A DNA stretch of 64,000 bases from Balanoglossus misakiensis (lineage: Eukaryota > Animalia > Hemichordata): NCBI GenBank assembly GCA_040954595.2, contig CM082587.2:10669403-10733402 (forward strand), read 5' to 3'. Both the position numbers and the translations under genes were made by a program. The notes below the pieces were generated by a model. The model saw only the letters and a list, made by a program, of their open reading frames with translations, was not told the DNA's origin and did no database searches. This document shows positions 39,301 through 61,530 of this stretch, one piece after another; the first letter of the stretch is position 1, and each line of letters opens with the position of its first letter.

Positions 39301-39757
39301 AAATTATGGGCACGACACTGGCCACTTAAGCTCTGCATGGCCTGGTTAATGAATGTTGACGCAAAAGTTGACCCCACCAAACACTCAAAATTAATAGGCA
39401 CGACACTGGCCACTAGCTCTGCATGGCCTGGTTAATCAATGTTGACGCAAAGGTTGACCCCACCAAACACTCAAAATTAATGGGCACGACACTGGCCACT
39501 AGCTCTGCATGGCCTGGTTAATCAATGTTGACGCAAAGGTTGACCCCACCAAACACTCAAAATTGATGGGCTCGACACTGGCCACTAGCTCTGGCCTGGC
39601 TTATCAATGTTGACGCAAGGGTTGACCCCACCAAACACTCAAAATTGATGGGCACGACACTGGCCACTAGCTCTGGCCTGGCTAATCAATGTTGACGCAA
39701 GGATTGACCCCACCAAACACTCAAAATTGATGGGCACGACACTGGCCACTAGCTCTG
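21388..39757. repeat. Satellite DNA array, 82/86-bp monomer (about 215 copies), left arm
   Basis: Unit GGCACGACACTGGCCACTAGCTCT(GCAT)GGCCTGGTTAATCAATG(C/T)TGACGCAAAGGTTGACCCCACCAAACACTCAAAATT(A/G)ATG. 78-bp variants occur at the left edge. Confidence 0.98.
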
Positions 39758-40260
39758 CCCTTACGAAAAAGGTTCTATAGAACTCTATTGAACTGTGTAG
39801 AATTCGATAGAAATTCAATAGAATGCAATTTTCTATAGAATTATATTGATGACTTCTGTGGATTTTCAGTAGAAAATCAATAGAATATATTTTCTATAGA
39901 AATTTTACTGATGACCTCTATTGAATGAAGGATGCATTTTACTAGTTTTTATCAAAATTATAGAAAATGAAATAAAAATTGTAATATTTGCCCGCTGTAC
40001 ACAATTTTTCATAAATATTACCAAAATTCAACATAAACATGTAGACTCTACAGAATTATATTCGTCTCTGGATTTTCTATAGAAAATCTGTTCCTACTTG
40101 CTATGAAATGTCTGCCCATACTCAGTTCAGAATGATCAAAGAATAAGTAATGTTTGCTTCCTTTACTTGTATAAACAGTAATACCAGTGCACTTCAACAA
40201 AAATCTATTGACTTCATGGAGTTCTGTAGATGTCAATAGATTTTCTATTGAAAAGTATTT
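39758..40260. repeat. Left terminal inverted repeat and subterminal repeats of the CACTA element
   Basis: Many TTCTATAGAA / TCTATTGA / TCAATAGA motifs in both orientations. Confidence 0.8.
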
Positions 40261-40616: not shown

Positions 40617-43600
40617 TTAATCCCTTTCAAATGTGTTAGGGAGAGGAGACAAGTGGAGTGTCTCTCCCATTACAAGTTCTACACATTTTTTTTTCAAAAA
40701 TGAAGGCAAGACAGCAATACTGTCATGTATAATATCATTTAGTGGTATTATGTGTGTACACTGTATACCAATTTCATTATCAACAAATAATGGCCTTCCA
40801 GTTAAATATCTCTTGACTATAACAAAAGGTTTTTCACTACAACCACAAGGATCGTCACCTTCACATACACAATCTGGCTTAACAATGACAAGACTTCTTA
40901 TTGCATAATAGTTCTGATCAGCTCCCTGAAAATGATGATTCACTCTCTTGAATGCCCTTGTATAACTACTTGTTGTAAACACAACACCCAATACCATGAA
41001 CCGATTGTAGTATTTAGCACTGACATTTGTCATACGATGGCCCACTAACTCCTCTATGGCTAACTGGTCAGTCAATCTTAATTGCTGTTTGCAGGGAGCT
41101 CCCATTGTAAGAATCCCCGAGCATCTTTGGTAGTGCCTCTCTAAAAGGACCATTCCACAAGACAATTTGTCAAATATTTTTCTCAGAACACCATTGTGAG
41201 GTATAATTGTTGATCGTCTTGATAAATCTCTCCAGCTACAGAAAGTATTTGCAATCTGTGAAGGTACATGTTGTGTTCCCTGAAACAGCTTCATGAGCAC
41301 CCCATTGTTACTTTCAAAGATAAATGATGATGTAGCCCAGAGTGGTGCCCAATGTCTAACACTGTTAGACAAATGTAATAATATGTGCATATTAAAGGAC
41401 ATACATTCTTTACCATATAGCTGTTCTGTTGTAATCACAAATTTTCTGATAACTTGCTCTGCCAGATCAATAGATTGTCTCGGTACATTTTCCTGGAGCA
41501 AGGTGTGAATCCCAAAGACCAATAAAAACCAATGGTTGATATAAACTGCAGGTAGCACACCTTTCAAAACAATCAATGAATAGAATAGAAGAAATGCCCT
41601 CCATTCTGAACCTTTCCAATATTTTCGTTGGTCTAATGAACGTGGTGTTCTAGTTATTTCATTTGGTGGGGACTGCTGTTGTAAACGAGAATTAACTAAG
41701 CGCTGCTTAGTGGGGGTTAAATACCATGGCTTCTGTTTATTTTCACTGTTAAGCCAAAGGTAGGTTACTTGTCTGACTACCCCTAACAAAACACAATGTA
41801 AATAATCTGGGACAAACCCTTGCACTATGTCAAAATTTGGAAGGAGCATACAGACACTGGGTCCCTTCACGCCTAACACTGGTTGATCATTTTCAACAGC
41901 CTGCCTGCTACACTCTTGAAATTGGTCATTATCCCTTGGCTCAGGATTAGCAAGGTCGTGCACACTATACACACGGGCATGACCATTGCCCTTGGCAATA
42001 TATTCCCCAGGGTGAAGGCACCAGTCACATCCATATTCCCCATTGTATTGCTTACAGTTTCGAATCATTGGTCGGGCTACGGAATCTGCAGTACACAATA
42101 ACACATGTGCACGTGTGTTGATCACCTCACCAGTATTTTGGTTTTGCCAGTTGAAGCCGTCGGTACACAATGCCACACACTCTTCCACAAATGGTGCCAA
42201 AAAGCAATCCATTTGTGGTTTAGTTTGACCGAACCACAGGCCTGGCATGAGGATATTCTTTTTTTGACATTTTGGTGTCAGTTCCGTAACTGTACATTGA
42301 ATGGGCCATACAGAGAAACCTGATGACTTAAAAGCTGGCACTCCATCACAATTCCAGAGAAGTGTTAAGTCATTATCCCCAACAATATTGTTAAGAAGAT
42401 CTTGATAAATTGACCCACCAAAAAGAGTTGAATTTGACAATTCACCACTTACGTTCTGATTTTCCATAAGATCCACAAGTTGATCCTTTAGTGACAACAT
42501 TATGAAAAATGTGCTATTCGTTAGAGAAGTTTGCTCACTGAATGGCTCATTACAACCAACACAAGTGTCAACTGTAATTTCCCCTTCCACCCCAATGTAT
42601 GTCATACAACTGCAACAATAAAAGTGCTTCTTACATGATACAGCAGTCTCTATGAAACATTTCTTGAAAAAATATGTTGTTGCTGGTACAGTTTCTGGAG
42701 CTGTCAAGTTAATGATATCCAATAAGTCCTGAACAGCATCTCTTGTTAGTCTGTGCCTGAGGATAAATGCCTGAAGAAGCAGACAAAGCTGGTCTGTTGT
42801 GACGTTTGTTTCTTCGTCGGCCTGTTGACACCCCTAAGAATGAGAAAAGGCAATATAAATAACACAAATATGTTCCTTAACCAATAAGGATGTTGCTTTT
42901 TTCAATTTCATGAGATAAATATCTGGTCACAGGACAAACTAGGAAATAAAACTGAATACAGCCATGCCACATGCCCTCACTTTAGCAGCAGGATCCTGTT
43001 ACAATAAAGCCCATAAAGGCATTAGCACCACAATTTACCCACAATTCCCTGTGATTGATACTATCATGTGTTACAACTTTTTCAATGCAATAACCAATGA
43101 ACCATGTCATTGAATCAAATAAAAATTTCGCTAGATTTTACAGAAATCTTAAAAAATACCATTTTATGTGCAAAAAAGTCACTCTCTAGGTATGTCGTCA
43201 TTTTGGGTACTAAATCAGGTTAACATACATTTTTTTGTCTTGTCAATTGGAAAAGGCATTATTAAAAAAGACATTTCGTTTTATTTTTTTAACAAACACA
43301 ACAATATCTCTACATGAAAGTGCACTGTGAGATAGACATTGTCTAATGTAACATGACTTACAAACCACACACACACACCAGCTATCCTGTGACTATGTGG
43401 TATGTTGAATCAAGAAGTAAGACTTACCAATTCATTATCAAGCAGATATGGTCCTATGCCAGTCACACCATTTTCTCCATTCTGCATGTTTGCATGAAGA
43501 GTCTCTCCATCGTCTGTTGTGTCTGTTTCTGCAATTATGTTTTCATTGTTGTCCTGTTCACTGCTACAAAAACTTTCACTCAGATCGTTGCCATGAACGG

Positions 43601-44532
43601 TTTCATCATCATCCAAATGTCCCTCAATATCAGTTTCAAAACTGCTGAGAATGTCATCCTCTGTGACATCACCATTATCAAGGCTACCTGTGTTCAGAGG
43701 TTCAGATCCAGCCCCATGATCACTACAAGCCAGAATTTCATCTTCATCTTGTTGAATTGAGGTGTCATTGTGCTGAAAGATGAAAACAACCACATATAAG
43801 GAAGCGCCTTCCATCAAATTAATGTACAAGAAAACTTTATCTGAAAATGAGTATGTGAATTTTTTTTTCTAGTCAGATCGATTACAAAAGCATAGAAAAC
43901 AAACTCATATTATTATGCGGGAGTCAATGTAAACCCCCACCCCCACCTCGGGCGATACAGGACAAATGTGGGAGATTCGACCGTTTTGGCCATGAAACTG
44001 TGCCCGAGGAGGTGGGGCAATTGCCTCATTTTGATCCCCCTATTCCTTTCTTGGAATTTATGAATGCCACCCATGGGGGTGGGGGAAATGTGGGGGATTA
44101 ACTTGTATCAGGTGGGGATTTTCAAGATTGTTTTGCCCCAGGGGTGGGGCATTTGACAGATTTGCACCAGACCATTCGCGATTCTTGTCGAAATTGTACC
44201 AGAAACTCGGGTCGGTCATGGAGGTACTAAGAGTACCTCGATCCATGGGTCGATCGGGCCGTTAGTATAAAATATCCCACAAACGCAGGATTACGTGTTT
44301 GTTTGCCTAAAGCAAACATCGGTTCTTGTGCATCATGCATGTCGCCATGGAGGACAACGTACGCGTACATGGTTTGGTTACTTTTAAAAAACATTGGAAG
44401 TGATCTGCAATTAGTACATACCTCAAAACAATTGTTATTACGATGCCGCCGCCTCGTCAAAGTTCTTTTTGGAATACCGGCTTCAGGATCCCTCAGGTAA
44501 CGTTTGTATGGACCACGCTTCGAGTTAGACAT
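40617..44532 (-). CDS. EnSpm/CACTA-type DDE transposase, 3 exons (44532-44422, 43772-43428, 42833-40617), about 890 aa
   Basis: Motifs WNCDGVP, WPI, ADSVAR, YNGEYGCDWC, PDYLHCVLLGV, WKGSEWRAFLLFY, NMHILLHL and SSFIFESNNG. GT-AG introns are both phase 0 and join the exons into one open frame. Exon 2 is acidic. Confidence 0.88.
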
Positions 44533-44828
44533 GTCTACGTCTTCGATCGATGTAAAGGTCAACGCGACTCAGCTGATCTGACGCTCAACTAGGAAATACG
44601 TACGTAACGTCCGGTCATGTGACGACCATGTGACTTGTTGAAAGTAGACAGATTTCGGAGGTAATGCGACTGTTTGATAGTAAACCTTCGAAAGCCACGC
44701 GAAATTAGTTTTCAAACAATAAATATATACCCCCAAAATATCCAACTTAAATGCAATATGAAAAATTAAAAAAAAAAAATACCCCGGGGTTGTATTGGAG
44801 CTTTTCCCAGCATGCATCACGGCGCGTC

Positions 44829-44836
44829 TATATAAG
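44829..44836 (+). promoter_or_regulatory. Putative TATA box of the BEN gene, separated from it by the Gypsy insertion
   Basis: TATATAAG. In the reconstructed empty site it lies 30 nt upstream of an Inr-like TTCA (A at 55837) and about 120 nt upstream of ATG 55927. Confidence 0.5.
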
Positions 44837-44847
44837 TGCCAACGACC

Positions 44848-45142
44848 TGTAGCGTTTTCCCCAACTTCAACGCCACGGAAAGGTTTCCCTAGTCAATGCC
44901 CGTAACGCATACTCACCTAGTTGAGTGCGTGCAGGCGGTCCGGGTCCAGAGCAAGTAGAGCGTGTAGCACCAGACCATGGACGAGACGAGAGAGAACCCC
45001 GACTTCCGGTCCCACGGTGTTATATATACCCTTCACGGGGTCACGTGACAGGTCACATAAGGGTCACCACCTAATCAGCATTTCCACAGGAATCTCCAGG
45101 CACTGGCATACTCCAGGTGAGGTTTTCTCCAGAAATACCACA
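44848..45142 (-). repeat. 3' LTR (295 bp)
   Basis: TGTAGCGTTTTCC...AAATACCACA on the plus strand. No differences from 55527-55821 seen by eye. Confidence 0.96.
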
Positions 45143-45160
45143 CTCTCCCCTGTTTTCTTC
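45143..45160 (-). other. Polypurine tract
   Basis: Minus strand GAAGAAAACAGGGGAGAG abuts the 3' LTR. Confidence 0.85.
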
Positions 45161-45523
45161 TGGAGCGATGGGTTCCGTGTGGACCTCTGGAAACTGGGAG
45201 ATTCCTTTCATAGATGGTTAGATGATTATGGACGGAACAGCCGATTCGAATCAATCCGGGATATGGCACGTTTTTCTTTTTTCTCTTTTGGGGACTTTTT
45301 AGAGCCATACCGTCGAGATCGATTCTTACACGATGGTGGCAAACACAATTTTACTGCCACTGGGGAGGGACCGGAAGTAACAAAAATCAACAAGCAAAAA
45401 TATCCCCAGTGGCGTGGGCCCAGATAAAAGGGAAAGACCCATGGAAGGCAGCTCCGGATGTAATATGGATTTCACAGTCAAACACCAATACTGCAGCCTA
45501 GGACCCCCCCAAAGATTACCCGT

Positions 45524-47893
45524 TCAGTCGAAGCCGTACAAGCGCCTGGTGTTGTTGGCAGCAGCTTCCAGTAGTTGGTTCAGAGGTATCCCCCGCCGCG
45601 CCGCAACCAGGACAGCAACATCTCCGATAAAGGCTGGAGTGTTGGGCTTGGCACCATTGGCCACAGGGAAGTACGGGGAGTCCGTCTCCAAGAGAAGACG
45701 ATCCTCTGGCACCGCCCTGAGTGCTTCAAGCTGAGGGGTAGAAAAAGTGTTAACACCAGCATTAAAGCTGAAGTAACAGTACGGATAATCCCTGGTCCAG
45801 CACTCGACCACAAAACGATCTCCAGTGAAGCCATGGAAGTGGATCAACTGCTCACTGGCGCAGTACTCACGAACGAGTTCAAGAGCCCTACGCCCGACAG
45901 CAGCAATACACACATCTCCCGTAGCTCCTCTGATGTGCAGAACCAGGACCTTCCGTGGATCACACAGGGAAAGGGCCAACCTGAACACGGTCTCCTGGAG
46001 AGGCCATTTGTCTGCCGCAACAGAGAAATCTAACCCAACCTCCCCAACTGCTGCCACCTGAGGGGATTGGATTAATTCCTTGAACTTCTCCAGTCGATTT
46101 CCAGTCAGTGTTGCCGCCTGTTTGGGATGTATTCCCACAGCAATTTTCCAACGCTTACTCCGGGAAAGATTGGTGGGAAAAGTCGTAGGGTCACAGTAAA
46201 CCTCCACCCCACCCAATACGGGAATCCCCGTCAGGGATTTCAGCATGGAAGGGGAGGAGACCACTACGTCCGATGTCACGCGGGTGACAGTACCCCGCCA
46301 CGAAGAAGTCAATCGATCCAAATGAAAATGAGAATCAAAGGCTCCTAGTGGCGAAGCCGCACTGCCAACGCATTTCACCTTACCCTTAGACTTAGTCGGG
46401 GGAGGACCTACATCCAAACGCTGGCTCCCTGAAGCAGAAGCAGTTGCCGAGGCAATCAAATCTTGCACTTCCTGTGATCGGGACACAGTGCACGACTTCC
46501 TGGGCAGAGGATGGCTTTGCTTGGTTTTCTTGGCCTGCAGAATCTGCCGATCCCCGCTGAAGAGGCCTGCAAACTCCGCTCTCTGCAAAGGAGAAAGAAA
46601 ACCCAACAAAACCAAGAGCACTCTCCAGTGAACGAGTACAGCGGGAGAATTTGGCGGGTGGAGTCCAAACCGTAGCATGGGCTCCCACCCCAAATCCCTA
46701 CATAGCTGATGCATCAAAGGAAAATACTCTTCCTCTACCGATGAAACCGGCGGAAGAAAGACATGGCCAAACCGCTTGAAATAAACCAACAAGCTCATGG
46801 CCGGTGAACCTGGTGATCCCCCAACAATCCAGGAATGGAGAATGCCCAAAGCATGGAACACTCTCCAAGCCTCGAAAGGATGATCACCCCGGAGTACCGG
46901 AGGAACATGCTTACCCAAGACATGAGCCCTGAGGTCCACAGTTACCTCCGTGCACTCCGGCAAGGGACAACGAACATGACCTGCCGGCGGTATTCCAAGG
47001 TAGCCTGGGGGAAGAGGAACGAGAGGGGGTTGCCCTAAACCAACCGGGAGAAAAGCCTCACTAAAGGGTCCGACCAGAGAAAGAGGGCCAGATCGTTGCA
47101 CCCGCTGACTCCCTGCGGAGCCAACAGGAGGCTGATTCAGAACCCCCTTCCCCTTCTTGCCTTTACTGGACTTCTTCTTACCCCGGCCGGTTGCCACCAC
47201 AGCCTTCCTCACCGCTGGTCCTCGTTGCGGGCTAGCCGTTTCCATAGGCGCAGGAAGTACTTCCGGCGCTGCCTCCACCGGGGCAGAGACCAACACCGGT
47301 TGCACCTCCGGTATGGATCCAACCGGTGGACATACCAGTTCCCCCGCCCCCGGCCCCCGAGCGCGTTGGACGTCTGGCAGAGGTGCTGCGGGCAGCACCT
47401 CTTGCGGGATATCTGAGTGCACAGACTCCCGCTGCCATCTTTCCACTTGCTCAGGGTCCTGAAGACGGAAGTCCCGGTACATACCATCAGGTGGAACTTC
47501 ATACGAAGCCGACTTCTTGGACCTTTGGGGAGCAGACCAGGTGTTTTCTCTTGGATTTGGATGAGGAAGATGTTCATCAATCCAAGCGCGATCAAAACCA
47601 AGGCAAAGATCGACGTCTTTGCGCAGGGCTCTGATCCATCCCCATCGCTTCCTCCGGGCTGCTATGGTGTATTGACCGATCAGGAGCTCCTGGCCCTGTG
47701 CCACAGACCGGTCAGGTCCCATGGAAATAACCCCGATGCCATTGACTAGCTCCCGAACTTGCCAAAGGAAGTCATTGGTGGTAGCATCGGAGATCTCCTG
47801 GCTAAGACGCTGGCGAGCGGCACTCGGACCAGTCGGAGCGACCTCCTTCCATTGGCGCTTGGGCGAGGCAGGGGGAGGAGACGAAGAAGCCAT
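45524..47893 (-). CDS. Gypsy ORF3: Pro/Ser-rich N-terminus, C2H2-like motif and C-terminal TatD-family metal-dependent nuclease domain (about 789 aa from ATG 47893; frame open to 47968)
   Basis: TatD motifs FDSHFH, VGIHP, AVGEVGLD, VLHIR, IHFHGF and LLLETDSPY in about 45527-46345. CPLPEC-x9-HVLGKH at about 46907-46969. Splice acceptor immediately before ATG 47893. Confidence 0.88.
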   Translation of the reverse strand: MASSSPPPASPKRQWKEVAPTGPSAARQRLSQEISDATTNDFLWQVRELVNGIGVISMGPDRSVAQGQELLIGQYTIAARRKRWGWIRALRKDVDLCLGFDRAWIDEHLPHPNPRENTWSAPQRSKKSASYEVPPDGMYRDFRLQDPEQVERWQRESVHSDIPQEVLPAAPLPDVQRARGPGAGELVCPPVGSIPEVQPVLVSAPVEAAPEVLPAPMETASPQRGPAVRKAVVATGRGKKKSSKGKKGKGVLNQPPVGSAGSQRVQRSGPLSLVGPFSEAFLPVGLGQPPLVPLPPGYLGIPPAGHVRCPLPECTEVTVDLRAHVLGKHVPPVLRGDHPFEAWRVFHALGILHSWIVGGSPGSPAMSLLVYFKRFGHVFLPPVSSVEEEYFPLMHQLCRDLGWEPMLRFGLHPPNSPAVLVHWRVLLVLLGFLSPLQRAEFAGLFSGDRQILQAKKTKQSHPLPRKSCTVSRSQEVQDLIASATASASGSQRLDVGPPPTKSKGKVKCVGSAASPLGAFDSHFHLDRLTSSWRGTVTRVTSDVVVSSPSMLKSLTGIPVLGGVEVYCDPTTFPTNLSRSKRWKIAVGIHPKQAATLTGNRLEKFKELIQSPQVAAVGEVGLDFSVAADKWPLQETVFRLALSLCDPRKVLVLHIRGATGDVCIAAVGRRALELVREYCASEQLIHFHGFTGDRFVVECWTRDYPYCYFSFNAGVNTFSTPQLEALRAVPEDRLLLETDSPYFPVANGAKPNTPAFIGDVAVLVAARRGIPLNQLLEAAANNTRRLYGFD

Positions 47894-47924
47894 GTCTGTG
47901 GACAATGAAGAGAAAGACAATAGA

Positions 47925-50900
47925 TTAAGAACATGCCGGACAAGTATAAACAGAAATCCTCCGCGCATCCCTGGTCGTCACCCCAACGCAGTGTCCATGG
48001 TACCACTCCGAGCAAGCATCACACTGGATCATGAACTCACCACGATAGGGCTTCCGACAAACACAATATAGTGTCGATGATACATCGGCGATCTCTGCCT
48101 TACCTGTACTATGCCGTTTGAGATTTTCTTGATACCTCATGACCCATTGGGGCAGGTCTCGGCTCCGACATAGCTTAAGTCGATCATGGTGGGCAGTTAC
48201 TATGGCCCGCTGGAATTTTACCTTATACAAGTATGGTGTTAACTTGTTGATAATAATCCCAGGTCCTTTCCACGGACGACTTAATTTCCGGCTTTTCCCT
48301 TTTCCTACTGCAGATTCAAGCATGTAAACGCAATTCCCTACCTCGTAAGAATAAAGGTTTACCCTTAAATCATAATTCCTCTTCATTACTTCTTGGGTAG
48401 ATTGAAGTTTGGTCCTTGCTATCTCATGCGCAAGCTTGATAGCGGACTCAAGCTCACAGACATGGTCCTGCGGCTCCTTACCTTTGACTGATGATAAGCC
48501 AAATACGAGGTCGGAAGGTTGATTGACTTCACGACCAAGCATTAGCTTATTGGGGGTGAATCCTGTATGTCTATTGATACAGGACCGGAGAGCTCCAGCA
48601 ATTTGTGATAGATACACATCCCAGTTTCGCTGAGTTTTGTCCACAAAACATCGAACTGCATCCATTATACTTCTGTTGGCCCGCTCCACTTGTCCATTTG
48701 CGGAGGGCCGGTAGGGTGTAGTCCGGGTCTTGTGAATGTGTAGCACGTCACAAATTGCGGAGAACAGTTTACTCTCGAAGTTAGCGCCCTGGTCAGTGCA
48801 GATCTCAAATGGATAACCAAATCGCGAAAAGAAGTTTTCCACGGCTGCATGTGCTGTTATTTCCGCGGTTTGGGATGGAAGTGGTATGCACTCCACCCAT
48901 TTCGTGAACTGGTCAACCATTACAAGAACACACTCATTCCCTCGTGCTGTTTGAGGTAGTGGGCCCAGGAAATCCAGATGGACACGCTCCATAGGGGCGC
49001 CAGCATGGAACTTGGTTAACGGGAATCGGGATCGACGCACAGGTTTCTTGCTAGTTGCACAGACACTACAAGAAGTAATAAACCGGGTGATATCTCGAGA
49101 CATACCATACCAGAAATATTTCTCCCTGAGTTTGGCTTGAGTCCTGGTAATCCCCTGATGTCCTGCAGCAGGAATGTTGTGATTTAACTCCACGACCTCC
49201 AACTGCAGCGATCTGGGCACAACCAGGGTCACACTGTCATCCAGTTTCCTCCATATGGTCCCATTTTCAATAAAGAAGATATCCCTGTTAATCCAATAAT
49301 ACTTGGCTGCCGGAGAAGACAAGAATATCTCATTACTGCTTGGTTCCACTTTCGATGTAAGCCATGGCCACAGAAAAATCAGATCTGCATCCTGTTGCTG
49401 GGCCTGACCGATTTCCTTGGTCGTATACCCCAAAAAGGTGCTGCCTTGGGTGTCTTGGTGAAACCGTGTAACAACACAACATTTTGGGGAGGATACGGTT
49501 TTAATTATCTCAACTGAGGGGTACATAGTATCCAGGTCACTAATAGTACCATCCTCAGGAGATAAAGGATCCCAGCAGATGAAATCCGATTCCCATGGCC
49601 ATTTTGGAAACTGGTTGGTGACTTGCAGTTGAGCAACCTTGAGGGTCGATTCGGTGTCCTTGCCCTGATAAGGAAATGAGACTAGTGGTACTACATCATC
49701 CACATCACTGGTAAAACGAGCCCAATTGTCATGTGCACGAGTACAGTAGTAACATCCCCCACAGGGTAGATTTCCTGGTCTAACTTCGATGGAAAAATCG
49801 CAGCAAACTTCACCATGGGGCTGGCGTGATAAAGCATCGGCGTTACTGTGCTTCTTCCCAGGTCGGTGTTGTACGGTCATGTTGTATTGGCTAAGTTCTT
49901 CCAGCCACCTTGCCAGTTGTCCTTGGGGGTCCTTGAACCGTAGGAGCCAGACAAGACTGCTATGGTCGGTTCTGATAGTAAATTGGTTCCCCAACAGAAA
50001 ATGACGGTACTGGCGAGTAAACCGTACCACTGCTAGCAGCTCCTTCCTGGTAGTACAATAGCGTCGTTGCTCAGGGGTAAGGGCATAACTTCCATAAGAA
50101 ATTACTTTTTCCTCCCCATTCTGCACTTGCAATAATTCAGCTCCAATGGCGAAGTCCGATGCATCTGTATCTAAAATAAAAGGATCGGTGTTGCTGGGCA
50201 AAGCGAGCACAGGGGCAGACAACAAAGCCTCTTTCAATGTGTCAAAAGCCTGCTGTTGTTCCTGACCCCAAATGAAAGCTTTTTTCCCGGTAACACCATA
50301 GAGAGGAACAGCCGTATTAGCGAAATCTTTGATGAAAGCTCGATGGTAATTGGCCAATCCCAAAAACTTCTCAACATCTTTGGTGTTCTTAGGTACGGGC
50401 CAATCCTTGACTGCTCGAATGGAACTTTTATCCAACTCCACATTGCCGTTCCTGATGATGCGCCCCAAGAAGACGACTTCTCTTTGAAAGAGATCGCACT
50501 TCTTGGGTTTCAGTTTTAGTTGGTAGTGACGCAGTCGATCAAAAACTTTCCGCAAGTAGGTCAGATGGTTGTCGAATGAAGTCCCAAGCACGAGAATGTC
50601 ATCAATGAAGGCTAACACGATATCCCAAGTAAGACCTCTGAGTACTAGATTGATGACTCTGGAGAATGTGGCTGGAGCATTGCAGAGACCAAAGGGCATT
50701 CTATTGAATTCAAACAAACCATATTTGGTGGTGAAGGCAGTTTTCTTCTGGTCTTCTTCCTTGATTCTAATCTGCCAATATGCTGAGTTTGCATCCAATT
50801 TTGAAAACCACGTTTGTCCTGCCAATGTATCCAGACATTCTTCAATCAGAGGTAGAGGGTAGACATCTTTGGTCGTGTGATCATTTAATGCACGATAATC

Positions 50901-52124
50901 GACACACCAACGAACTCCCCCATCACGTTTTCTCACTAGTACTGGAGCAGAAGCCCACTCGGAAATAGAAGGTTGGATAACCCCTGCATCTAGCATCTTT
51001 TGAAGATGTGCCTCTTCTTCCTGCGCAAAACACATGGGTGTCCGGCGCATCCGCTGTTTGACTGGCTTGGAATCACCGGTGTCGATCTGATGTTGAATGG
51101 TGGTGAAGTTCCCCAGATCAAATTCGGTTTTGGCAAACACATCTTCATACTCGATAAGTAGATCTTGCACTCGAGCTTTTTCTTCATCTCGTAGATGGAT
51201 GCCAGACCTCTCCAAGAGATCATGAAGATGTACAGGGATTTCGTCCTCCTCTGTTTCTCCGTTCCTTTCCTTGCATTCGACAGGTTGAAGTGAAACAGCC
51301 CCTACCTCTACCGCATGAGCGATGACCTTGCCTCTTCGAAGGGTCACAAACTCATCAGTAGGGTTGACTATGCAAACTTTAGGTGTCTGTCCTCCTGAAT
51401 GGAGTGTACGTGGTATCAGTACCGGTAGATCTTCTGTTGATTCAACCACATACTCAGACATGGAGTCACGCATAGCACATGGCAGTCTAATTACAGTATT
51501 TGGGGGGATCCGTACCCTATGCAAGAGAGCGACTTTTGCGATCTTGGGTTCCCCTATTACTGTACCAAACTGCAAGGGTATTATTTCATCCTCAATCCGA
51601 AGAATGTTGTTGAGTAAATCTAGATGGACCCCATGAGACCTAACAAAGTCGATGCCTAGGAGCATTTCGTCCTCAATGGGAGCCACATAGACTCGCTCCG
51701 AGTATAGACCTTTTCCCAATCGGATGTCAACCGGACCCACCAAAAACCCCTTCATCTTCAGCTCCCTTCCGGCAGTTTGGAAGGTCACTTGGTTAATAAT
51801 GGGCGGTTTAACATCTAACTGGTCAAAGAACTTATCAGAAATGATAGTTACTTCCGAAGCAGTATCAATTATCGCTTGGGTATCATGTCCTTGTATCCGA
51901 AGTGGAACGCGGTACATTTTACCGGAACGCAATTGACAAATAGTTAACAATTCATGTGAATCGTTAACCCCATCTACGGAAGACAACGCAATGTTACCGT
52001 CTCCTACCACCCTCAAACCGTGGCGCTCCTTCCGAGTTACCTCTGGAGGAAACACCCCGCTCTTTTGGATGGATGAAGGGATAACATCACTATGATGGTG
52101 GTGGCCTGTCGATCTGGGGGTCAC
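47925..52124 (-). CDS. pol: Gypsy Pol: aspartic protease, reverse transcriptase, RNase H, integrase and C-terminal PHD finger (probably translated by -1 frameshift from gag near 52154)
   Basis: Protease IIDTASEVT. RT CVDYRALN, MPFGLCNAPATF and AFIDD. RNase H TDASD, KELLA and TDH. Integrase HHCC, HLD / TDQG / VER and WKGP. Terminal C4HC3 PHD finger. Confidence 0.97.
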   Translation of the reverse strand: MTPRSTGHHHHSDVIPSSIQKSGVFPPEVTRKERHGLRVVGDGNIALSSVDGVNDSHELLTICQLRSGKMYRVPLRIQGHDTQAIIDTASEVTIISDKFFDQLDVKPPIINQVTFQTAGRELKMKGFLVGPVDIRLGKGLYSERVYVAPIEDEMLLGIDFVRSHGVHLDLLNNILRIEDEIIPLQFGTVIGEPKIAKVALLHRVRIPPNTVIRLPCAMRDSMSEYVVESTEDLPVLIPRTLHSGGQTPKVCIVNPTDEFVTLRRGKVIAHAVEVGAVSLQPVECKERNGETEEDEIPVHLHDLLERSGIHLRDEEKARVQDLLIEYEDVFAKTEFDLGNFTTIQHQIDTGDSKPVKQRMRRTPMCFAQEEEAHLQKMLDAGVIQPSISEWASAPVLVRKRDGGVRWCVDYRALNDHTTKDVYPLPLIEECLDTLAGQTWFSKLDANSAYWQIRIKEEDQKKTAFTTKYGLFEFNRMPFGLCNAPATFSRVINLVLRGLTWDIVLAFIDDILVLGTSFDNHLTYLRKVFDRLRHYQLKLKPKKCDLFQREVVFLGRIIRNGNVELDKSSIRAVKDWPVPKNTKDVEKFLGLANYHRAFIKDFANTAVPLYGVTGKKAFIWGQEQQQAFDTLKEALLSAPVLALPSNTDPFILDTDASDFAIGAELLQVQNGEEKVISYGSYALTPEQRRYCTTRKELLAVVRFTRQYRHFLLGNQFTIRTDHSSLVWLLRFKDPQGQLARWLEELSQYNMTVQHRPGKKHSNADALSRQPHGEVCCDFSIEVRPGNLPCGGCYYCTRAHDNWARFTSDVDDVVPLVSFPYQGKDTESTLKVAQLQVTNQFPKWPWESDFICWDPLSPEDGTISDLDTMYPSVEIIKTVSSPKCCVVTRFHQDTQGSTFLGYTTKEIGQAQQQDADLIFLWPWLTSKVEPSSNEIFLSSPAAKYYWINRDIFFIENGTIWRKLDDSVTLVVPRSLQLEVVELNHNIPAAGHQGITRTQAKLREKYFWYGMSRDITRFITSCSVCATSKKPVRRSRFPLTKFHAGAPMERVHLDFLGPLPQTARGNECVLVMVDQFTKWVECIPLPSQTAEITAHAAVENFFSRFGYPFEICTDQGANFESKLFSAICDVLHIHKTRTTPYRPSANGQVERANRSIMDAVRCFVDKTQRNWDVYLSQIAGALRSCINRHTGFTPNKLMLGREVNQPSDLVFGLSSVKGKEPQDHVCELESAIKLAHEIARTKLQSTQEVMKRNYDLRVNLYSYEVGNCVYMLESAVGKGKSRKLSRPWKGPGIIINKLTPYLYKVKFQRAIVTAHHDRLKLCRSRDLPQWVMRYQENLKRHSTGKAEIADVSSTLYCVCRKPYRGEFMIQCDACSEWYHGHCVGVTTRDARRISVYTCPACS

Positions 52125-52160
52125 CTCCAGGCCTAATCGGTGGACCCCTTCCCGTTTGGG
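52103..52160 (-). promoter_or_regulatory. Programmed -1 ribosomal frameshift signal (slippery heptamer plus H-type pseudoknot)
   Basis: C CCA AAC in the gag frame (52160-52154), 5-nt spacer, stem 1 GGGGTCCACC/GGTGACCCC, and loop GGCCTG pairing with downstream CAGGCC. The pol frame is -1 and open across this site. Confidence 0.8.
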
Positions 52161-54172
52161 GGTTCCGAAAAGGATACCCTACGCTCTGGGGAGGTGAAGC
52201 GACGTGAAGGTGAGGCAGTGCAGTCCCGTTGAAAATGTCCAGGTTTTCCGCAGCGGTAGCAGTTGGACCTACTGGGAGAAGGAGATCTTGATCGTGCACT
52301 AACCAAACCCTCAAGTTGAAGAGCCATCTTATTTAAGGTAGATGTAAGGTCCGCTAGGTGGCGCTCCATTCGTGACATCCGTCGCTCCACTTCACCAATG
52401 GGGGAGGCCTGCTTTGACGTCCCTGGAGGGGTGGTAGACATGGCTTTTACCTCAATAGCTTCCTCCCCGGTCTGAGGAGAATCCTGGCTTACATACCGAA
52501 CCCGAGGTGGTGGTGGTCGGTCAAAAATGGCTCGGCGGTTGTATTGATGCCATTTTATTAGGTTGATAGCCTGTTCCATCGACCGAGGGTAGTTATTGGC
52601 GGCATACTGCCCAGCGTGCTTGTCAATACACCCCTGACAAAAACGTAAAACAGCCTGTTCCATCATAAATGAATCGGATACTCTGCTGTATGCGTTGGTA
52701 GCTACAGTTAGGATCCTATCAGCCCATTTGTTCAGAGGCTCGTTGGGTTCCTGTTTCTGTTGCAGGAAATCCAAATGGGCTGTCTCTGGCAGTTCTTTAT
52801 AACCAAAGCGTTGCTCCAGTTTGAGCAACAGATCCATGTAACGAATATTCGGTTCGTTCTCCAGAATGATGGTGTAACAGTCCCCAGCTTCTCCATCCAG
52901 ACACCAGCACAGTTGTTCACGTCGTACATCAGCTGACCAACCCTGGGAAGTTGCATATTTGGAAAATCTCATGACAAAGGATTTCCAACTTCCCTCCCCA
53001 TTAAAATACAGATTTTTGGGGAAATGCCGGGGTTGGATAGCGTCTGCCCCCTGATGTCTTGGTGCATGGACTCCTGGAAGGGTATTTTCGGAATGAACAT
53101 TCTGTCTTGAAGATGTCCCAGCAAGCATGCCTGGCGTCAACCCATATGCCCGGTCACCCGCTCCAAAGTGTTGCGAAGTTGCAGACGGAACATTCATAGG
53201 CGGATTAGCTGTTCTATCCAATGAATGTAGACCCTGGGTGAATGTATGCGGTGCACTGCCATGCACAGATGATGATGGCATTCCAGGGTGAGCTATAGGA
53301 TGACCAGTATAGGATTGCGCCACCATCGGTGGTAGGGTGACAGGAAAATACCCACCCAACGATGGAACAAAATGCCACTGGACAGAGGAGGTTTGTGGGC
53401 CAGACCGCTCTCCACAATACGGAACCGATGGTGGAACACCCCGGGGGTGTCCAGTCACAGGCACCGATTGCTGAAAAGCAGAAGGGGTCACAACAGTTCC
53501 TGGTGCAGCTGGAACAGGTGATTGCAAACGAGAATGTGACCATGGGGTATTAACCACCGGAGCTGATTGTCGTGCATAAGTGGGCAGCGCAGAGGTCGTC
53601 ATCGTTTCCATCAGTGGAGTGCTGCCGGTGACTTGTGGTGTACGCAGTGATCTTCTAGGAACCGTTCCGGATGCTGGAGTGAACGCGACGGATGGTGCAG
53701 CAATTGCAGACCCTGGTGGGACCATGACCGCTGGGCCCGCGCACGCAAAATCATCATCAAATGACATCTGTCCAACATCCGACCCAGGACCATCCAGACC
53801 ACGCACAACACTCCTCCTTGATGACGGTGGCATGGATAACTCATCAATCTTCTTTACCACGTTATCGATGATAGGATCCCTCCGCGATGACCTTGGGGTT
53901 GCTGGAGGTTCGGGCAGCTTAGCCGGTGAAACCATGAAGCTTGCATCCTCCAATTCCACATCGGATGGCGGCCCGAACGGTGAAAAATCGACACGAGCCT
54001 TGAAATCTTCCGAGATGTTGATGTGGGGCAGGGCCAGAACATGTTCCCATGTAAGGTTTCCCATCCGTTCTCGTTCAGTTAGCAAGGTGTTGGCCGATGC
54101 TCTTCCAATCCCATAGATGGTAATCAACTCATCCAAAGTACAGTGGTTAATGTACACCCTAGCCATTGTCAC
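52133..54172 (-). CDS. gag: Gypsy Gag with N-terminal ComEA-like helix-hairpin-helix, capsid-like region and CCHC zinc knuckle
   Basis: N-terminal VYINHCTLDELITIYGIGRASANTLLTERERMG. Capsid-like FNGEGSWKSF...QEPNEPLNKWADRI. Knuckle CYRCGKPGHFQRDC. Confidence 0.92.
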   Translation of the reverse strand: MTMARVYINHCTLDELITIYGIGRASANTLLTERERMGNLTWEHVLALPHINISEDFKARVDFSPFGPPSDVELEDASFMVSPAKLPEPPATPRSSRRDPIIDNVVKKIDELSMPPSSRRSVVRGLDGPGSDVGQMSFDDDFACAGPAVMVPPGSAIAAPSVAFTPASGTVPRRSLRTPQVTGSTPLMETMTTSALPTYARQSAPVVNTPWSHSRLQSPVPAAPGTVVTPSAFQQSVPVTGHPRGVPPSVPYCGERSGPQTSSVQWHFVPSLGGYFPVTLPPMVAQSYTGHPIAHPGMPSSSVHGSAPHTFTQGLHSLDRTANPPMNVPSATSQHFGAGDRAYGLTPGMLAGTSSRQNVHSENTLPGVHAPRHQGADAIQPRHFPKNLYFNGEGSWKSFVMRFSKYATSQGWSADVRREQLCWCLDGEAGDCYTIILENEPNIRYMDLLLKLEQRFGYKELPETAHLDFLQQKQEPNEPLNKWADRILTVATNAYSRVSDSFMMEQAVLRFCQGCIDKHAGQYAANNYPRSMEQAINLIKWHQYNRRAIFDRPPPPRVRYVSQDSPQTGEEAIEVKAMSTTPPGTSKQASPIGEVERRMSRMERHLADLTSTLNKMALQLEGLVSARSRSPSPSRSNCYRCGKPGHFQRDCTASPSRRFTSPERRVSFSEPPNGKGSTD

Positions 54173-55511
54173 AGTTCACAATCTTAATTTACACAAGCCT
54201 TGGATGCAAAAACTTGAGCAAATTAAATTACCCTCTGATATGTTTAAACAAATCTAGAAATTTTCTTTAAACTTGAGAAAACTATCAGTTAATAGATTTA
54301 TACAAGTCTAACTAGTAAACTTGGAAAATCTATATGTTACTAACTGAATTCAATCTAAATTTAGACAAGTCCCCAAAAAGCCAAGAAATTCGGAAAAATC
54401 AAGCGAAGTGTCACTATGCAATCACACAAGCCACAGATTTCTCCACGAACTTGAATAAAGTGACGACACAGATCCAAATCCCCAATTCTAATCAATCTCA
54501 AAGCTCCTCAAAAACTTGAAGAAACTCGATAAATTCAGTACAGGGAAAAGGGACAAGTGCTGTTTTTCTCGTGGGAAGACTTTTTTTTCAAAAAGGCCGA
54601 AACAATTGCACAGAAAAAATTCCTACACTCTTGGATACAAGCACGAATTGCAGGACCCTAACAGTGGTAGAAATCTCCTGAACCCTTGCAGTAATTGTGA
54701 TATGCGATCACCCACTTTCAGGATGACCACAAATTATCACTACTGCAATATTACCCAAATGACCCACAAGGAAAATGCTCTCAGTGATAGAAGAAATTAT
54801 TGACCTGTTATATTTGTTGGTCGGTTTTTTTTTATTACTAGAACGTAACAATATTTTCGACCTGTTATATTTGTTGGTCGTTTTTTTTTTTTTTTTTAGT
54901 ACTGGAAATATCTAAGCTATCCCAGAAATATGCAACAATAACGAAGATATCCAGTAACAACAGAGTCAACGCTTCAAACTAAAATTCAAATTACCAGGTG
55001 GTAGGTAAATTTGCACAAGAATGACTGAATTCCCGCGTCAAACGCTATTCAAAGAAAAATTCCCGCTCCACAAATGTTATGCAATCTCTCAGCGAAATGC
55101 TTTCAAAAATAATCCCGACAAAAATGCAGTAAATAATCCACACAAATGCCGACACAGGAAGATTTAATTCAACAAAACGCATGAAAAACTACACACAAAC
55201 GCTGCACCGGAAAGTTCTAGGTTTCACGAATGACAAGAATTCCCAAACTCAAGTACAAAAAAACCCGAAACTAAATAAGCAAATTCCCGCACACACTTTC
55301 ACTTCCAACACAATTACTTACGATCCTTTGGTGATACGGAAAATCTGCTCACTCAGGTAAATCACACAAGCTACTCAAATTCACCGATGAGCACCAGTAC
55401 AGAAACACCACAGTCTCCGGGTAATTTTTTTTTTTCCTTTTACTTTTTCCGCCCGAAAACAATGGGTCTTGTACTTACCCACTCCCCTCAAAAATTCCGC
55501 AGGGAAGAAGT

Positions 55512-55525
55512 TGCTCGCAGCGCCA
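55512..55525 (-). other. Primer-binding site, probably tRNA-Ser
   Basis: Minus strand TGGCGCTGCGAGCA lies 1 nt inside the 5' LTR boundary. It is complementary to a Ser-type tRNA 3' end (...UGCUCGCAGCGCCA); isoacceptor not verified. Confidence 0.75.
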
Positions 55526-55526
55526 A

Positions 55527-55821
55527 TGTAGCGTTTTCCCCAACTTCAACGCCACGGAAAGGTTTCCCTAGTCAATGCCCGTAACGCATACTCACCTAGT
55601 TGAGTGCGTGCAGGCGGTCCGGGTCCAGAGCAAGTAGAGCGTGTAGCACCAGACCATGGACGAGACGAGAGAGAACCCCGACTTCCGGTCCCACGGTGTT
55701 ATATATACCCTTCACGGGGTCACGTGACAGGTCACATAAGGGTCACCACCTAATCAGCATTTCCACAGGAATCTCCAGGCACTGGCATACTCCAGGTGAG
55801 GTTTTCTCCAGAAATACCACA
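55527..55821 (-). repeat. 5' LTR (295 bp) with TATA box and candidate splice donor
   Basis: Direct repeat of 44848-45142. Minus-strand TATATATAA at 55707-55699, palindrome GTCACGTGAC at 55719-55728, and AG|GTGAGT at 55595. Confidence 0.95.
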
Positions 55822-55926
55822 GACCTTCTGACCTTCACACAGCTGATTTGCTCGCTATTGTTCACAACCATAACAACGCTCCGGCTTTCGAATTTTTCTA
55901 CAAACTGTTTTACCAAACGTCCCACA

Positions 55927-59963: not shown

Positions 59964-61530
59964 TGGCCTGGCTAATCAATGTTGACGCAAGGGTTGACCC
60001 CACCAAACACTCAAAATTGATGGGCACGACACTGGCCACTAGCTCTGGCCTGGCTAATCAATGTTGACGCAAGGGTTGACCCCACCAAACACTCAAAATT
60101 GATGGGCAAGACACTGGCCACTAGCTCTGGCCTGGCTAATCAATGTTGACGCAAAGGTTGACCCCACCAAACACTCAAAATTGATGGGCACGACACTGGC
60201 CACTAGTTCTGGCCTGGCTAATCAATGTTGACGCAAAGGTTGACCCCACAACCACTCAAAATTGATGGGCACGACACTGGCCACTAGCTCTGGCCTGGCT
60301 AATCAATGTTGACGCAAAGGTTGACCCCACCAAACACTCAAAATTGATGGGCACGACACTGGCCACTAGCTCTGGCCTGGCTAATCAATGTTGACGCAAA
60401 GGTTGACCCCACCAAACACTCAAAATTGATGGGCACGACACCCAGGCCACTAGCTCTGGCCTGGCTAATCAATGTTGACGCAAAGGTTGACCCCACCAAA
60501 CACTCAAAATTGATGGGCACGACACTGGCCACTAGCTCTGGCCTGGTTAATGAATGTTGACGCAAAAGTTGACCCCACCAAACACTCAAAATTAATAGGC
60601 ACGACACTGGCCACTAGCTCTGCATGGCCTGGTTAATCAATGTTGACGCAAAGGTTGACCCCACCAAACACTCAAAATTAATGGGCACAACACTGGCCAC
60701 TAGCTCTGCATGGCCTGGTTAATCAATGTTGACGCAAAGGTTGACCCCACCAAACACTCAAAATTAATGGGCTCGACACTGGCCACTAGCTCTGGCCTGG
60801 CTTATCAATGTTGACGCAAGGGTTGACCCCACCAAACACTCAAAATTGATGGGCACGACACTGGCCACTAGCTCTGGCCTGGCTAATCAATGTTGACGCA
60901 AGGGTTGACCCCACCAAACACTCAAAATTGATGGGCACGACACTGGCCACTAGCTCTGGCCTGGCTAATCAATGTTGACGCAAGGGTTGACCCCACCAAA
61001 CACTCAAAATTGATGGGCACGACACTGGCCACTAGCTCTGGCCTGGCTAATCAATGTTGACGCAAGGGTTGACCCCACCAAACACTCAAAATTGATGGGC
61101 AAGACACTGGCCACTAGCTCTGGCCTGGCTAATCAATGTTGACGCAAAGGTTGACCCCACCAAACACTCAAAATTGATGGGCACGACACTGGCCACTAGT
61201 TCTGGCCTGGCTAATCAATGTTGACGCAAAGGTTGACCCCACAAACACTCAAAATTGATGGGCACGACACTGGCCACTAGCTCTGGCCTGGCTAATCAAT
61301 GTTGACGCAAAGGTTGACCCCACCAAACACTCAAAATTGATGGGCACGACACTGGCCACTAGCTCTGGCCTGGCTAATCAATGTTGACGCAAAGGTTGAC
61401 CCCACCAAACACTCAAAATTGATGGGCACGACACCCAGGCCACTAGCTCTGGCCTGGCTAATCAATGTTGACGCAAAGGTTGACCCCACCAAACACTCAA
61501 AATTGATGGGCACGACACTGGCCACTAGCT
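59964..61530. repeat. Satellite array, right arm (about 19 monomers)
   Basis: Same monomer resumes in register after the transposon, mostly the GGCTAAT variant. Confidence 0.97.

Follow-up and report, generated by a model that had tools for sequence, protein, structure and literature searches.

What is a gene that ends in a nuclease domain doing in a Gypsy retrotransposon, at the position of an envelope gene, and what could it contribute to the element? In errantiviruses, env is a third open reading frame that is translated from a spliced subgenomic RNA, and the accessory genes in Gypsy elements of non-insect animals are barely characterised. For the hemichordate locus described here, an earlier note had proposed that the element captured a TatD-family nuclease gene and maintains it.

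Results

The element and its third gene

The window, i.e. the whole 64,000-nt stretch of DNA that was analysed, contains an intact and very young Gypsy LTR retrotransposon of 10,974 bp on the minus strand, on which all genes and signals described below are located. The LTRs of 295 bp (5' LTR, 55527..55821, with TG...CA ends; 3' LTR, 44848..45142) are 100% identical, and the flanking sequence carries a 4-bp target-site duplication, GACC (55822..55825 and 44844-44847). The 5' LTR is followed by a 14-nt primer-binding site, TGGCGCTGCGAGCA (55512..55525), which is identical in locus L011 and of which the first 11 nt are shared by locus L012; there are no tRNA genes within the 64,000-nt window. A polypurine tract (45143..45161) abuts the 3' LTR. 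The gag gene (52133..54166, 677 aa) encodes a weak HhH-like N-terminal motif, a capsid-like PNMA match and a CCHC knuckle (Pfam E-values 1.4e-6 for PNMA, 9e-7 for zf-CCHC and 0.038, under the cut-off, for HHH_3), and the Gag N-terminus has 38-40% identity to its counterparts in loci L011 and L027. In the overlap of gag and pol, a slippery heptamer CCCAAAC (52154..52160) may mediate a -1 frameshift into pol. The pol frame (47925..52178, 1417 aa) contains protease, reverse transcriptase, RNase H and integrase with their catalytic motifs, and its best PDB match is Ty3 Gag-Pol (E 5e-104); the order of gag followed by these four pol domains, with a Ty3-like reverse transcriptase, is that of Ty3/Gypsy elements (Metaviridae). 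The element has inserted into a CACTA element near a satellite, where a promoter is not evident. In contigs from the run X1, depth is 217-297 over the element and 21.5 over the junction contig, an about tenfold excess in depth that does not equal copy number and is no independent support, as X1/X2 may be the source sample. Mapping of LTR reads did not separate individual insertion sites.

Between pol and the polypurine tract, the earlier note had seen an uninterrupted frame of about 790 aa without a convincing signal peptide or env-type transmembrane architecture, and both observations hold. The frame is open from 47893 to 45524 (ORF3, 45524..47893, 789 aa from the ATG); it starts 31 nt past the pol stop (47925) and ends 362 nt before the polypurine tract (45161-45143). 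Its N-terminus is polar and without any hydrophobic stretch, and the highest 19-aa hydropathy (KD19 1.93, at aa 418) falls inside the helices of a confidently modelled globular domain, so that ORF3 does not have the signal peptide and membrane anchor that characterise env-bearing, errantivirus-like Gypsy elements. Besides a splice-acceptor-like site before the ORF3 ATG, the earlier note had overlooked two conserved domains within ORF3 residues 1-445, a PHD finger on the integrase and an HhH-like motif at the Gag N-terminus.

The first of the two ORF3 domains is a helical bundle (aa 23-117, 47543..47827) that is conserved in the family and modelled with pLDDT 84-98. VIA structural matches are confined to aa 18-122 and are generic helical bundles, none of them specific (best match Z 8.4, rmsd 3.3, 96 aligned). 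The middle domain (aa 306-445, 46559..46978), which is conserved as well, consists of a C2H2-type zinc finger with the ligands C309, C314, H324 and H329 and a helical part with an NSPAxLxHWR motif. It matches no Pfam family and has no Atlas match at or above 0.9. Foldseek, run with aa 1-450 and hence with the middle domain as part of a longer model, had no match at E <= 0.001, and a novel fold is not claimed. The cores are joined by linkers that vary widely in length and sequence among homologs and are basic or RS-rich in several of them.

A complete TatD domain

The C-terminal domain (aa 519-787, 45533..46339) matches Pfam TatD_DNase (PF01026) over the whole profile (positions 1-253; E 1.9e-37, 129.5 bits at a cut-off of 27). 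The TatD motifs noted earlier are indeed present in order, namely DSHFH (520-524), GIHP (587-590), GEVGLD (617-622), LHIR (652-655), FHGF (686-689) and ETDSPY (736-741). The fold was also borne out, as the AlphaFold model matches TatD, YcfH and TATDN3 structures in Foldseek (E 2.6e-11 to 1e-7), with TM(target) 0.75-0.78 against YcfH-type chains. By sequence, the best PDB matches of the domain are bacterial YcfH-type proteins, with no TATDN2 chain among the matches listed. Group II TatD proteins are described as having an HxH motif plus E, H, H and D as metal ligands (PMC10085689), and the window ORF3 has H522, H524, E618, H653, H687 and D738 at these positions, along with E736 of the ETDSPY motif. 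The domain is thus a predicted metal-dependent nuclease of the Group II HxH type with a complete ligand set. Of 155 aligned family rows, 141 extend over all six ligands, and 122 of these have the complete set; the other 19, in which ligands are altered, are scattered over about eight places in the family tree and imply that catalysis is not always needed.

Recurrence and selection

ORF3 is not confined to the window, as it was found in other copies and in other element families, and one X1 contig spans both the end of pol and ORF3. Among 23 independent loci, 11 show the layout of pol with a PHD finger, followed by a gene with the zinc finger/helical domain and TatD, including 8/8 of those with more than 1.4 kb (1,400 bases) upstream; locus L021, with 1.1 kb upstream, has no pol match. 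Immediately upstream of the TatD gene and in the same orientation, 9/19 metagenome loci and 2/4 further loci have pol sequence (integrase and/or PHD), and these 11 pol-linked loci represent nine families besides the window element. In locus L011, integrase-PHD and ORF3 even share one open frame. A putative deletion derivative was also observed, in which ORF3 is kept and gag-pol is lost. When clustered at 50% identity, the ORF3 family falls into at least 150 groups; where a source is named, it is a bivalve, a sea urchin or a hemichordate, and most of these members are annotated as “uncharacterized”. In Mya arenaria, 13 members of one 90% cluster are spread over several contigs of chromosome size, and there are 5 members in Argopecten. 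There were no gag or pol matches among 156 proteins compared, and a weak search for a long pol-TatD fusion found no protein of more than 1,381 aa.

In a FastTree tree of TatD domains (166 family rows), pol-linked domains occur in both main subclades, and the family stands apart from nine prokaryotic TatD proteins (SH 92). Five distant TatD proteins on viral contigs (28-29% identity) were treated as prokaryotic outgroups; relatives of the ORF3 middle domain or of pol were not found on viral contigs. Distances of pol and ORF3 are weakly correlated among eight elements (Spearman 0.21, Mantel p 0.08, first 5,040 orderings), and a strict co-descent is therefore not established.

ORF3 is under purifying selection, which excludes the neutral evolution that would have spoken against a maintained gene. 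Between the window copy and the X1 contigs, the 32 listed differences comprise 20 synonymous and 12 non-synonymous changes and no stops (pN/pS 0.21, p 1.3e-5). The synonymous excess falls in the N-terminal 110 aa (10:2), and the TatD domain alone has a ratio of 3:4. For the TatD domain, the comparison of loci L009 and L012 gave a pN of 0.14 at a saturated pS of 0.75. The middle domains of the near-identical copies L006, L007 and L008 gave dN/dS values of 0.31, 1.59 and 0.62, which are based on few changes and include a stop in L008. With the TatD fold, the multiple copies and families and the non-neutral evolution, the proposal of a captured and maintained TatD nuclease gene stands.

Splice signals and the integrase PHD finger

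A pyrimidine-rich tract ending in CAG (47896..47920), which resembles a splice acceptor, lies 2 nt before the ORF3 ATG, and three donor-like GTRAGT sites (55321..55595) are found upstream, at 55595 in the LTR and at 55478 and 55321 in the leader; we infer that these donors are used for splicing. A CAG at most 4 nt from the ORF3 ATG was counted post hoc in 5/7 families with a clear start, and an acceptor rule that had been fixed beforehand found sites in only 6/12 loci vs 21/149 background windows. Even in L011, despite the shared frame with integrase-PHD, there is a CAG-ATG at the ORF3 start. Judged by these signals, ORF3 likely has its own spliced message.

The C-terminus of the integrase is a PHD finger (47931..48065) of the PHF2/PHF8/DIDO/BPTF class (Pfam PHD E 1.3e-9; PHF2 E 4e-17), which is present in 11 loci. 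It has a C4HC3 arrangement and, when aligned to PHF2, the Tyr/Met/Trp cage positions, of which Met and Trp are kept in 10/11 locus rows. In this class of PHD fingers, these cage positions serve H3K4me3 reading, and homology to the class makes the integrase PHD finger a putative H3K4me3 reader.

Discussion

We regard it as nearly certain that the element is a Gypsy retrotransposon with a third gene ending in TatD, and that it belongs to a widespread lineage. Enzymatic third genes have precedents: in the LTR retrotransposons Juno and Vesta of bdelloid rotifers, ORF3 encodes a DEDDy 3'-5' exonuclease or a GDSL esterase (PMC5408684), and a nuclease as the third gene is therefore no new concept. 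Both systems are Gypsy-type elements with an enzymatic, non-env ORF3 that lacks transmembrane segments, both include a nuclease of the 3'-5' type with intact catalytic residues, and in both the function is predicted. The fold differs, however, being a TIM-barrel TatD here and RNase H-like DEDDy in Juno/Vesta; the rotifer ORF3s are described as not departing significantly from neutrality within genomes (PMC5408684), whereas selection is purifying here; and the present lineage has two extra conserved ORF3 domains, a PHD integrase and a distribution over several phyla. With errantiviral env, ORF3 shares the position between pol and the polypurine tract and the likely acceptor right before the start codon, but it has an enzymatic domain instead of a signal peptide, a transmembrane segment and fusion-protein features. 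The chromatin-reader module on the integrase recalls the chromodomain at the integrase C-terminus of chromoviruses (PMC12440569), which is replaced by a PHF2/DIDO/BPTF-class PHD finger in the window element. No description of a TatD-bearing LTR element was found in the literature searched, which was confined to papers, so that an annotation in Repbase or GyDB is possible; “TatD” is absent from the main texts of PMC5408684, PMC12440569, PMC6238403 and PMC13524379, and “PHD” from the main text of PMC6238403. Within the papers searched, the TatD ORF3 enzyme and its lineage thus appear to be undescribed.

With the cellular Group II TatD proteins TATDN2, TATDN3 and E. coli YcfH, the domain shares the TIM barrel and the motifs HxH, GE.GLD, H.R, H.F and ETD.PY; it differs from them in being encoded by a multi-copy retrotransposon, together with its own helical bundle and ZnF-NSPA domain. 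Its closest-looking cellular relative is TATDN2, whereas the functions listed in the earlier note were centred on DNA. Like TATDN2, ORF3 has a long N-terminal extension and the motifs CDP and FP..GF, and by motif its E618, E736 and D738 correspond to E593, E705 and D707 of TATDN2 (PMC10085689, PMC10711561). Among the family rows, 116/154 have CDP at 567-569 and 120/148 have [FY]P at 703-704, and neither motif occurs in the five prokaryotic TatD proteins checked. In the partly garbled PDF alignment of Fig. S1B in PMC10085689, human TATDN2 alone among eight rows has CDP, and it also has YFPN..GFT. TATDN2 was not among the sequences recovered in a search that started from the distant relative P0008, and the TatD tree does not contain it. 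Based on the two short motifs, the TatD domain of ORF3 may well derive from a host TATDN2. TATDN2 is reported to be mainly an RNA/R-loop nuclease that cleaves the RNA strand of R-loops as well as hairpin RNA (PMC10711561), and to guard fish germ cells against R-loop damage (PMC12709183).

These likenesses lead us to favour, tentatively, a reading in which ORF3 would be a trans-acting, TATDN2-derived nuclear nuclease, produced from a spliced message, that clears RNA:DNA hybrids and 3' ends arising from replication and integration. Splicing would join a donor in the leader or LTR to the CAG just ahead of the ORF3 start codon, in the manner of env, and the protein would be made separately from Gag-Pol. 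ORF3 may be carried to nucleic acid by its zinc finger/helical domain and by a linker that is long, basic and disordered, and the PHD finger may direct integration into H3K4me3 chromatin, which would be rich in transcription hybrids. There, TatD could strip the RNA strand from hybrids or trim single-stranded 3' ends; fewer DNA-damage and nucleic-acid-sensing responses in germ cells would follow, and new insertions would be inherited more often. As the element retains its own RNase H motifs, ORF3 would be an add-on and not a replacement.

Which other functions could be envisaged? It is rather unlikely that ORF3 is an anti-silencing factor, i.e. a TATDN2-like RNase that acts on hairpin or dsRNA, on small-RNA-bound RNA or on nascent chromatin RNA and thereby blunts piRNA/RNAi. 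Such a role would agree with the separate expression that the splice signals suggest, with highly variable linkers around conserved cores, as in proteins of host conflicts, and with the retention of ORF3 in the putative deletion derivative, but selection on the conserved domains is purifying and not positive. A packaged ORF3 that acts on cDNA maturation within the particle, by 3'-end trimming, primer removal or abasic-site incision, would make use of the 3'-5' ssDNA exonuclease and AP-endonuclease activities described for Group II TatD proteins (PMC10085689), and the single open frame of L011 would fit. Since the element already has RNase H and integrase motifs, the CAG-ATG persists in L011, and the weak search found no long pol-TatD fusion protein, we consider this role unlikely.

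Slightly less probable still is the destruction of cytosolic cDNA or hybrids, or of nucleic acids of rival elements or viruses, by which sensing would be evaded or competitors harmed. A broad single-strand nuclease activity would be enough for this, and TatD proteins have reportedly been recruited into conflict systems, such as QatD (PMC13434339), but the basic or RS-rich linkers of several homologs are more typical of nuclear proteins. That the barrel is mainly a scaffold for nucleic-acid binding, with the N-terminal and zinc finger domains doing the work, would account for the rows with altered ligands and for the fact that the clearest constraint within the family lies in the N-terminal 110 aa; it is nevertheless improbable, as most rows have the complete set of six ligands at an identity of about 40%, with synonymous sites saturated. 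The env position and the probably env-like splicing could finally be taken to indicate an env substitute, or ORF3 could be a passenger, captured once and neutral, or an artefact of the assembly, but these readings are already largely refuted and hardly credible, given the absence of a signal peptide or membrane anchor, the X1 contig that links the end of pol to ORF3, the nine other families with the same layout, and purifying selection.

The favoured reading of a TATDN2-derived nuclear nuclease can be extended, speculatively and with considerable doubt, to a germline “damage-control kit”. An old Gypsy lineage across molluscs, echinoderms and hemichordates would then combine an H3K4me3-reading integrase with a captured, TATDN2-derived R-loop RNase that has two new folded domains and removes hybrids before they can kill the germ cell or attract silencing, and the ORF3-only and catalytically altered copies would be cases in which the gene was kept and domesticated alone.

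Many RefSeq genes of bivalves and sea urchins that are named “uncharacterized”, “TatD” or “mucin-like” are likely retrotransposon ORF3s and not host genes, and a correction of such annotations follows. ORF3 provides an enzyme that can be tested directly, along with two folded domains that are uncharacterised. That a conserved nuclease with intact ligands is kept in at least ten divergent families suggests a retrotransposition step, or a host defence, that has to be countered in marine invertebrates.

Architecture of the element and of its third frame

A whole Gypsy LTR retrotransposon of 10,974 bp occupies 44848-55821 of the window, and by every feature examined it is a Gypsy element, with two mutually identical LTRs of 295 bp, a target duplication (GACC) read from the flanks, a primer-binding site (PBS) at 55525-55512 and a polypurine tract (PPT) at 45161-45143. 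Gag (677 aa) combines a CCHC knuckle with a capsid-like match and, at its N-terminus, a weakly scoring HhH match, in a stretch that is 38-40% identical to its counterparts in two other families. Pol (1417 aa) comprises PR, RT, RNase H, integrase with catalytic motifs and a terminal PHD finger, the nearest relatives of which are PHF2, DIDO, BPTF and PHF8, and a -1 frameshift can be inferred at a CCCAAAC heptamer in the gag/pol overlap. Three open frames and two identical LTRs mark the insertion as very recent. Its position is upstream of a CACTA/EnSpm-type transposase ORF that is itself intact (40617-42833; Transposase_21, E 4.9e-9), probably inside the CACTA-type element to which this ORF belongs (flanking stretches at 43400-44850 and 55822-56340). 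The window also holds a long tandem array of an 82/86-bp satellite unit (about 21390-39760), a second, short array of this unit (59964-61530), and MITE-like small inverted-repeat elements with 45-59-nt arms (57941-58286 and 7247-7873).

The earlier note had described an uninterrupted frame of about 790 aa between pol and the PPT that ends in a TatD nuclease. This frame, ORF3, is present on the minus strand (47893-45524, 789 aa) and contains all six claimed TatD motifs in the claimed order. The TatD fold is borne out by the full-length Pfam TatD_DNase profile, which aligns to aa 519-787 (E 1.9e-37), and by a predicted AlphaFold model that matches solved TatDs (E 2.6e-11 to 1e-7). The top PDB sequence matches are Group II YcfH-type TatDs (E about 1e-16 to 1e-15), and by all features examined in sequence and model the domain is a Group II TatD. 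Ahead of the nuclease, two further domains are predicted with confidence, namely a helical bundle (aa 23-117), for which structure searches returned generic fold matches only, and, at aa 306-445, a C2H2-type zinc finger fused to a helical domain that carries the motif NSPAxLxHWR, a unit for which Pfam has no family; predicted disordered linkers part these domains and the nuclease.

A pyrimidine-rich tract with a CAG lies 2 nt upstream of the ORF3 ATG, and donor-like sites are found in the LTR and in the leader. Across loci with ORF3 relatives, a pre-set acceptor rule picked out 6/12, versus 21/149 background windows, and by a post hoc count the CAG is at most 4 nt from the ORF3 start in five of the seven families with a clear start; among these seven, it is 14 nt away in locus L013, and locus L023 has none near the start. 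Together, these signals make a separate spliced ORF3 message likely. In locus L011 (1-2700), integrase C-terminus, PHD and ORF3 share one stop-free open frame with the CAG-ATG kept at the ORF3 start, and this ORF3 lacks the N-terminal helical bundle.

A widespread, pol-linked lineage

The profile search for the ORF3 family gave at least 150 clusters at 50% identity (E <= 6e-79). Six of 20 clusters checked by name are named (Pecten, Ostrea, Argopecten, Mya, Diadema, Lytechinus), and one further cluster of the 20 has a TatD label only; Ptychodera, Ruditapes and Strongylocentrotus are additional genera. One Mya cluster has 13 members across several chromosome-size contigs. A scan that used just the middle domain yielded 19 metagenome loci and four contigs from Sedimenticola MAGs. 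Integrase and/or PHD lie immediately upstream of ORF3 on the same strand in 11/23 of these loci, and in all eight whose upstream sequence exceeds 1,400 bases; the remaining 12 are mostly too short to show upstream pol, and L021 is an ambiguous miss. With near-copies counted once, the linked loci represent nine families besides the window element. TatD matches thus adjoin Gypsy pol well beyond the window, and the one-off capture that the earlier note had considered finds no support, as ORF3 recurs in other copies and families. Complete gag-pol-ORF3 sets occur in L012 and L027, and the window PBS is common to L011 and L012. The four Sedimenticola-binned contigs (L025-L028) carry element fragments, one being a whole permuted gag-pol-ORF3 set, and are most likely animal host DNA inside bacterial bins.

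Pol-linked loci have TatD domains in both main subclades of the family tree, with nine prokaryotic TatDs apart (SH 92; FastTree, midpoint root), and the family therefore probably descends from an ancestor whose TatD gene was already linked to pol. The distances for pol and for ORF3 show a weak correlation (Mantel p 0.08), and there may have been module exchange or saturation. A divergent sister group with zinc finger, HW[KR] helix and TatD (proteins P0008 and P0166-P0170) falls outside the main family in this tree. In the giant-squid Hox cluster, a figure legend annotates a "putative deoxyribonuclease TATDN2" next to pogo- and ZMYM-like genes (PMC6962438); this gene could be one of these ORF3s.

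The nearest published case is that of the bdelloid Juno/Vesta elements with a DEDDy exonuclease ORF3 (PMC5408684), which share the idea of a nuclease as ORF3 but differ in fold and have a narrower range. Literature searches, which did not extend to Repbase and GyDB, listed no paper on an LTR element that carries TatD. The TatD-bearing Gypsy lineage is real and, among the papers searched, appears new in form; the nuclease-ORF3 idea was already known.

Constraint and copies

Neutral evolution of ORF3, raised in the earlier note, does not agree with the substitution pattern. Between the window and contigs of sequencing run X1, one of which spans pol end and ORF3, at least 32 listed differences include 20 synonymous and 12 non-synonymous changes and no stops (pN/pS 0.21, p 1.3e-5); among these, the synonymous excess lies in the first 110 aa, and the TatD part taken by itself gives 3:4. 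The sole ORF3 indel among the rows listed for X1 is in frame, three further indel rows existing. Between related families, the TatD domain is clearly constrained, pN being well under pS (L009 vs L012: pS 0.75, pN 0.14; L017 vs L019: pS 0.79, pN 0.24).

The majority LTR contig in X1 and a second run, X2, differs from the window LTRs (44848-45142) at 6/283 sites, and as the two window LTRs are identical, two or more active sublineages are probably present side by side. One X1 contig, with 29 letters on its short side and absent from the X2 matches listed, joins window 55512 to 48308 and is tentatively an internally deleted derivative that would keep LTR, PBS, the end of pol that encodes the PHD, acceptor, ORF3, PPT and LTR. 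Its left break is exactly the last PBS base, and the junction shows 3 nt of microhomology plus two additional letters, which would fit aberrant strand transfer in reverse transcription.

Origin and possible role of ORF3

CDP at ORF3 567-569 (116/154 family rows) and [FY]P at 703-704 (120/148) are common to the family and human TATDN2, which in the Fig. S1B alignment is the only one of eight rows with CDP at that site and also has YFPN..GFT (PMC10085689). These two motifs, which are not a phylogenetic test, suggest capture of host TATDN2. TATDN2 is reported to degrade the RNA in R-loops and to cleave RNA hairpins via E593 and E705 (PMC10711561), to which ORF3 E618 and E736 correspond by motif, and its loss causes fish germ cell death via R-loop damage (PMC12709183).

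All six metal ligands are kept in 122/141 family rows, the other 19 rows having altered ligands, and a scaffold without catalysis appears doubtful as a role for ORF3. Altered-ligand members include P0022/P0163 (Ostrea edulis), P0107, P0093 and P0077 (Lytechinus), possibly domesticated host genes; P0022 has two ZnF-NSPA domains, and a member of its cluster is seen on 14 Logan contigs. Neither signal peptide nor membrane anchor was found in the sequence and predicted structure, as the earlier note had said, and an env substitute or passenger is very improbable. An anti-silencing RNase is unlikely, though of these alternatives it ranks highest; a cofactor packaged in the particle and trimming cDNA is rather less likely, and a cytosolic nuclease, or one aimed at competitors, slightly less so again.

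As the element retains its own RNase H and ORF3 is seemingly expressed separately, we tentatively favour a nuclease that acts in trans in the nucleus. Such an ORF3 would clear hybrids and 3' ends left behind by reverse transcription and by integration into active chromatin, which the PHD finger would guide.
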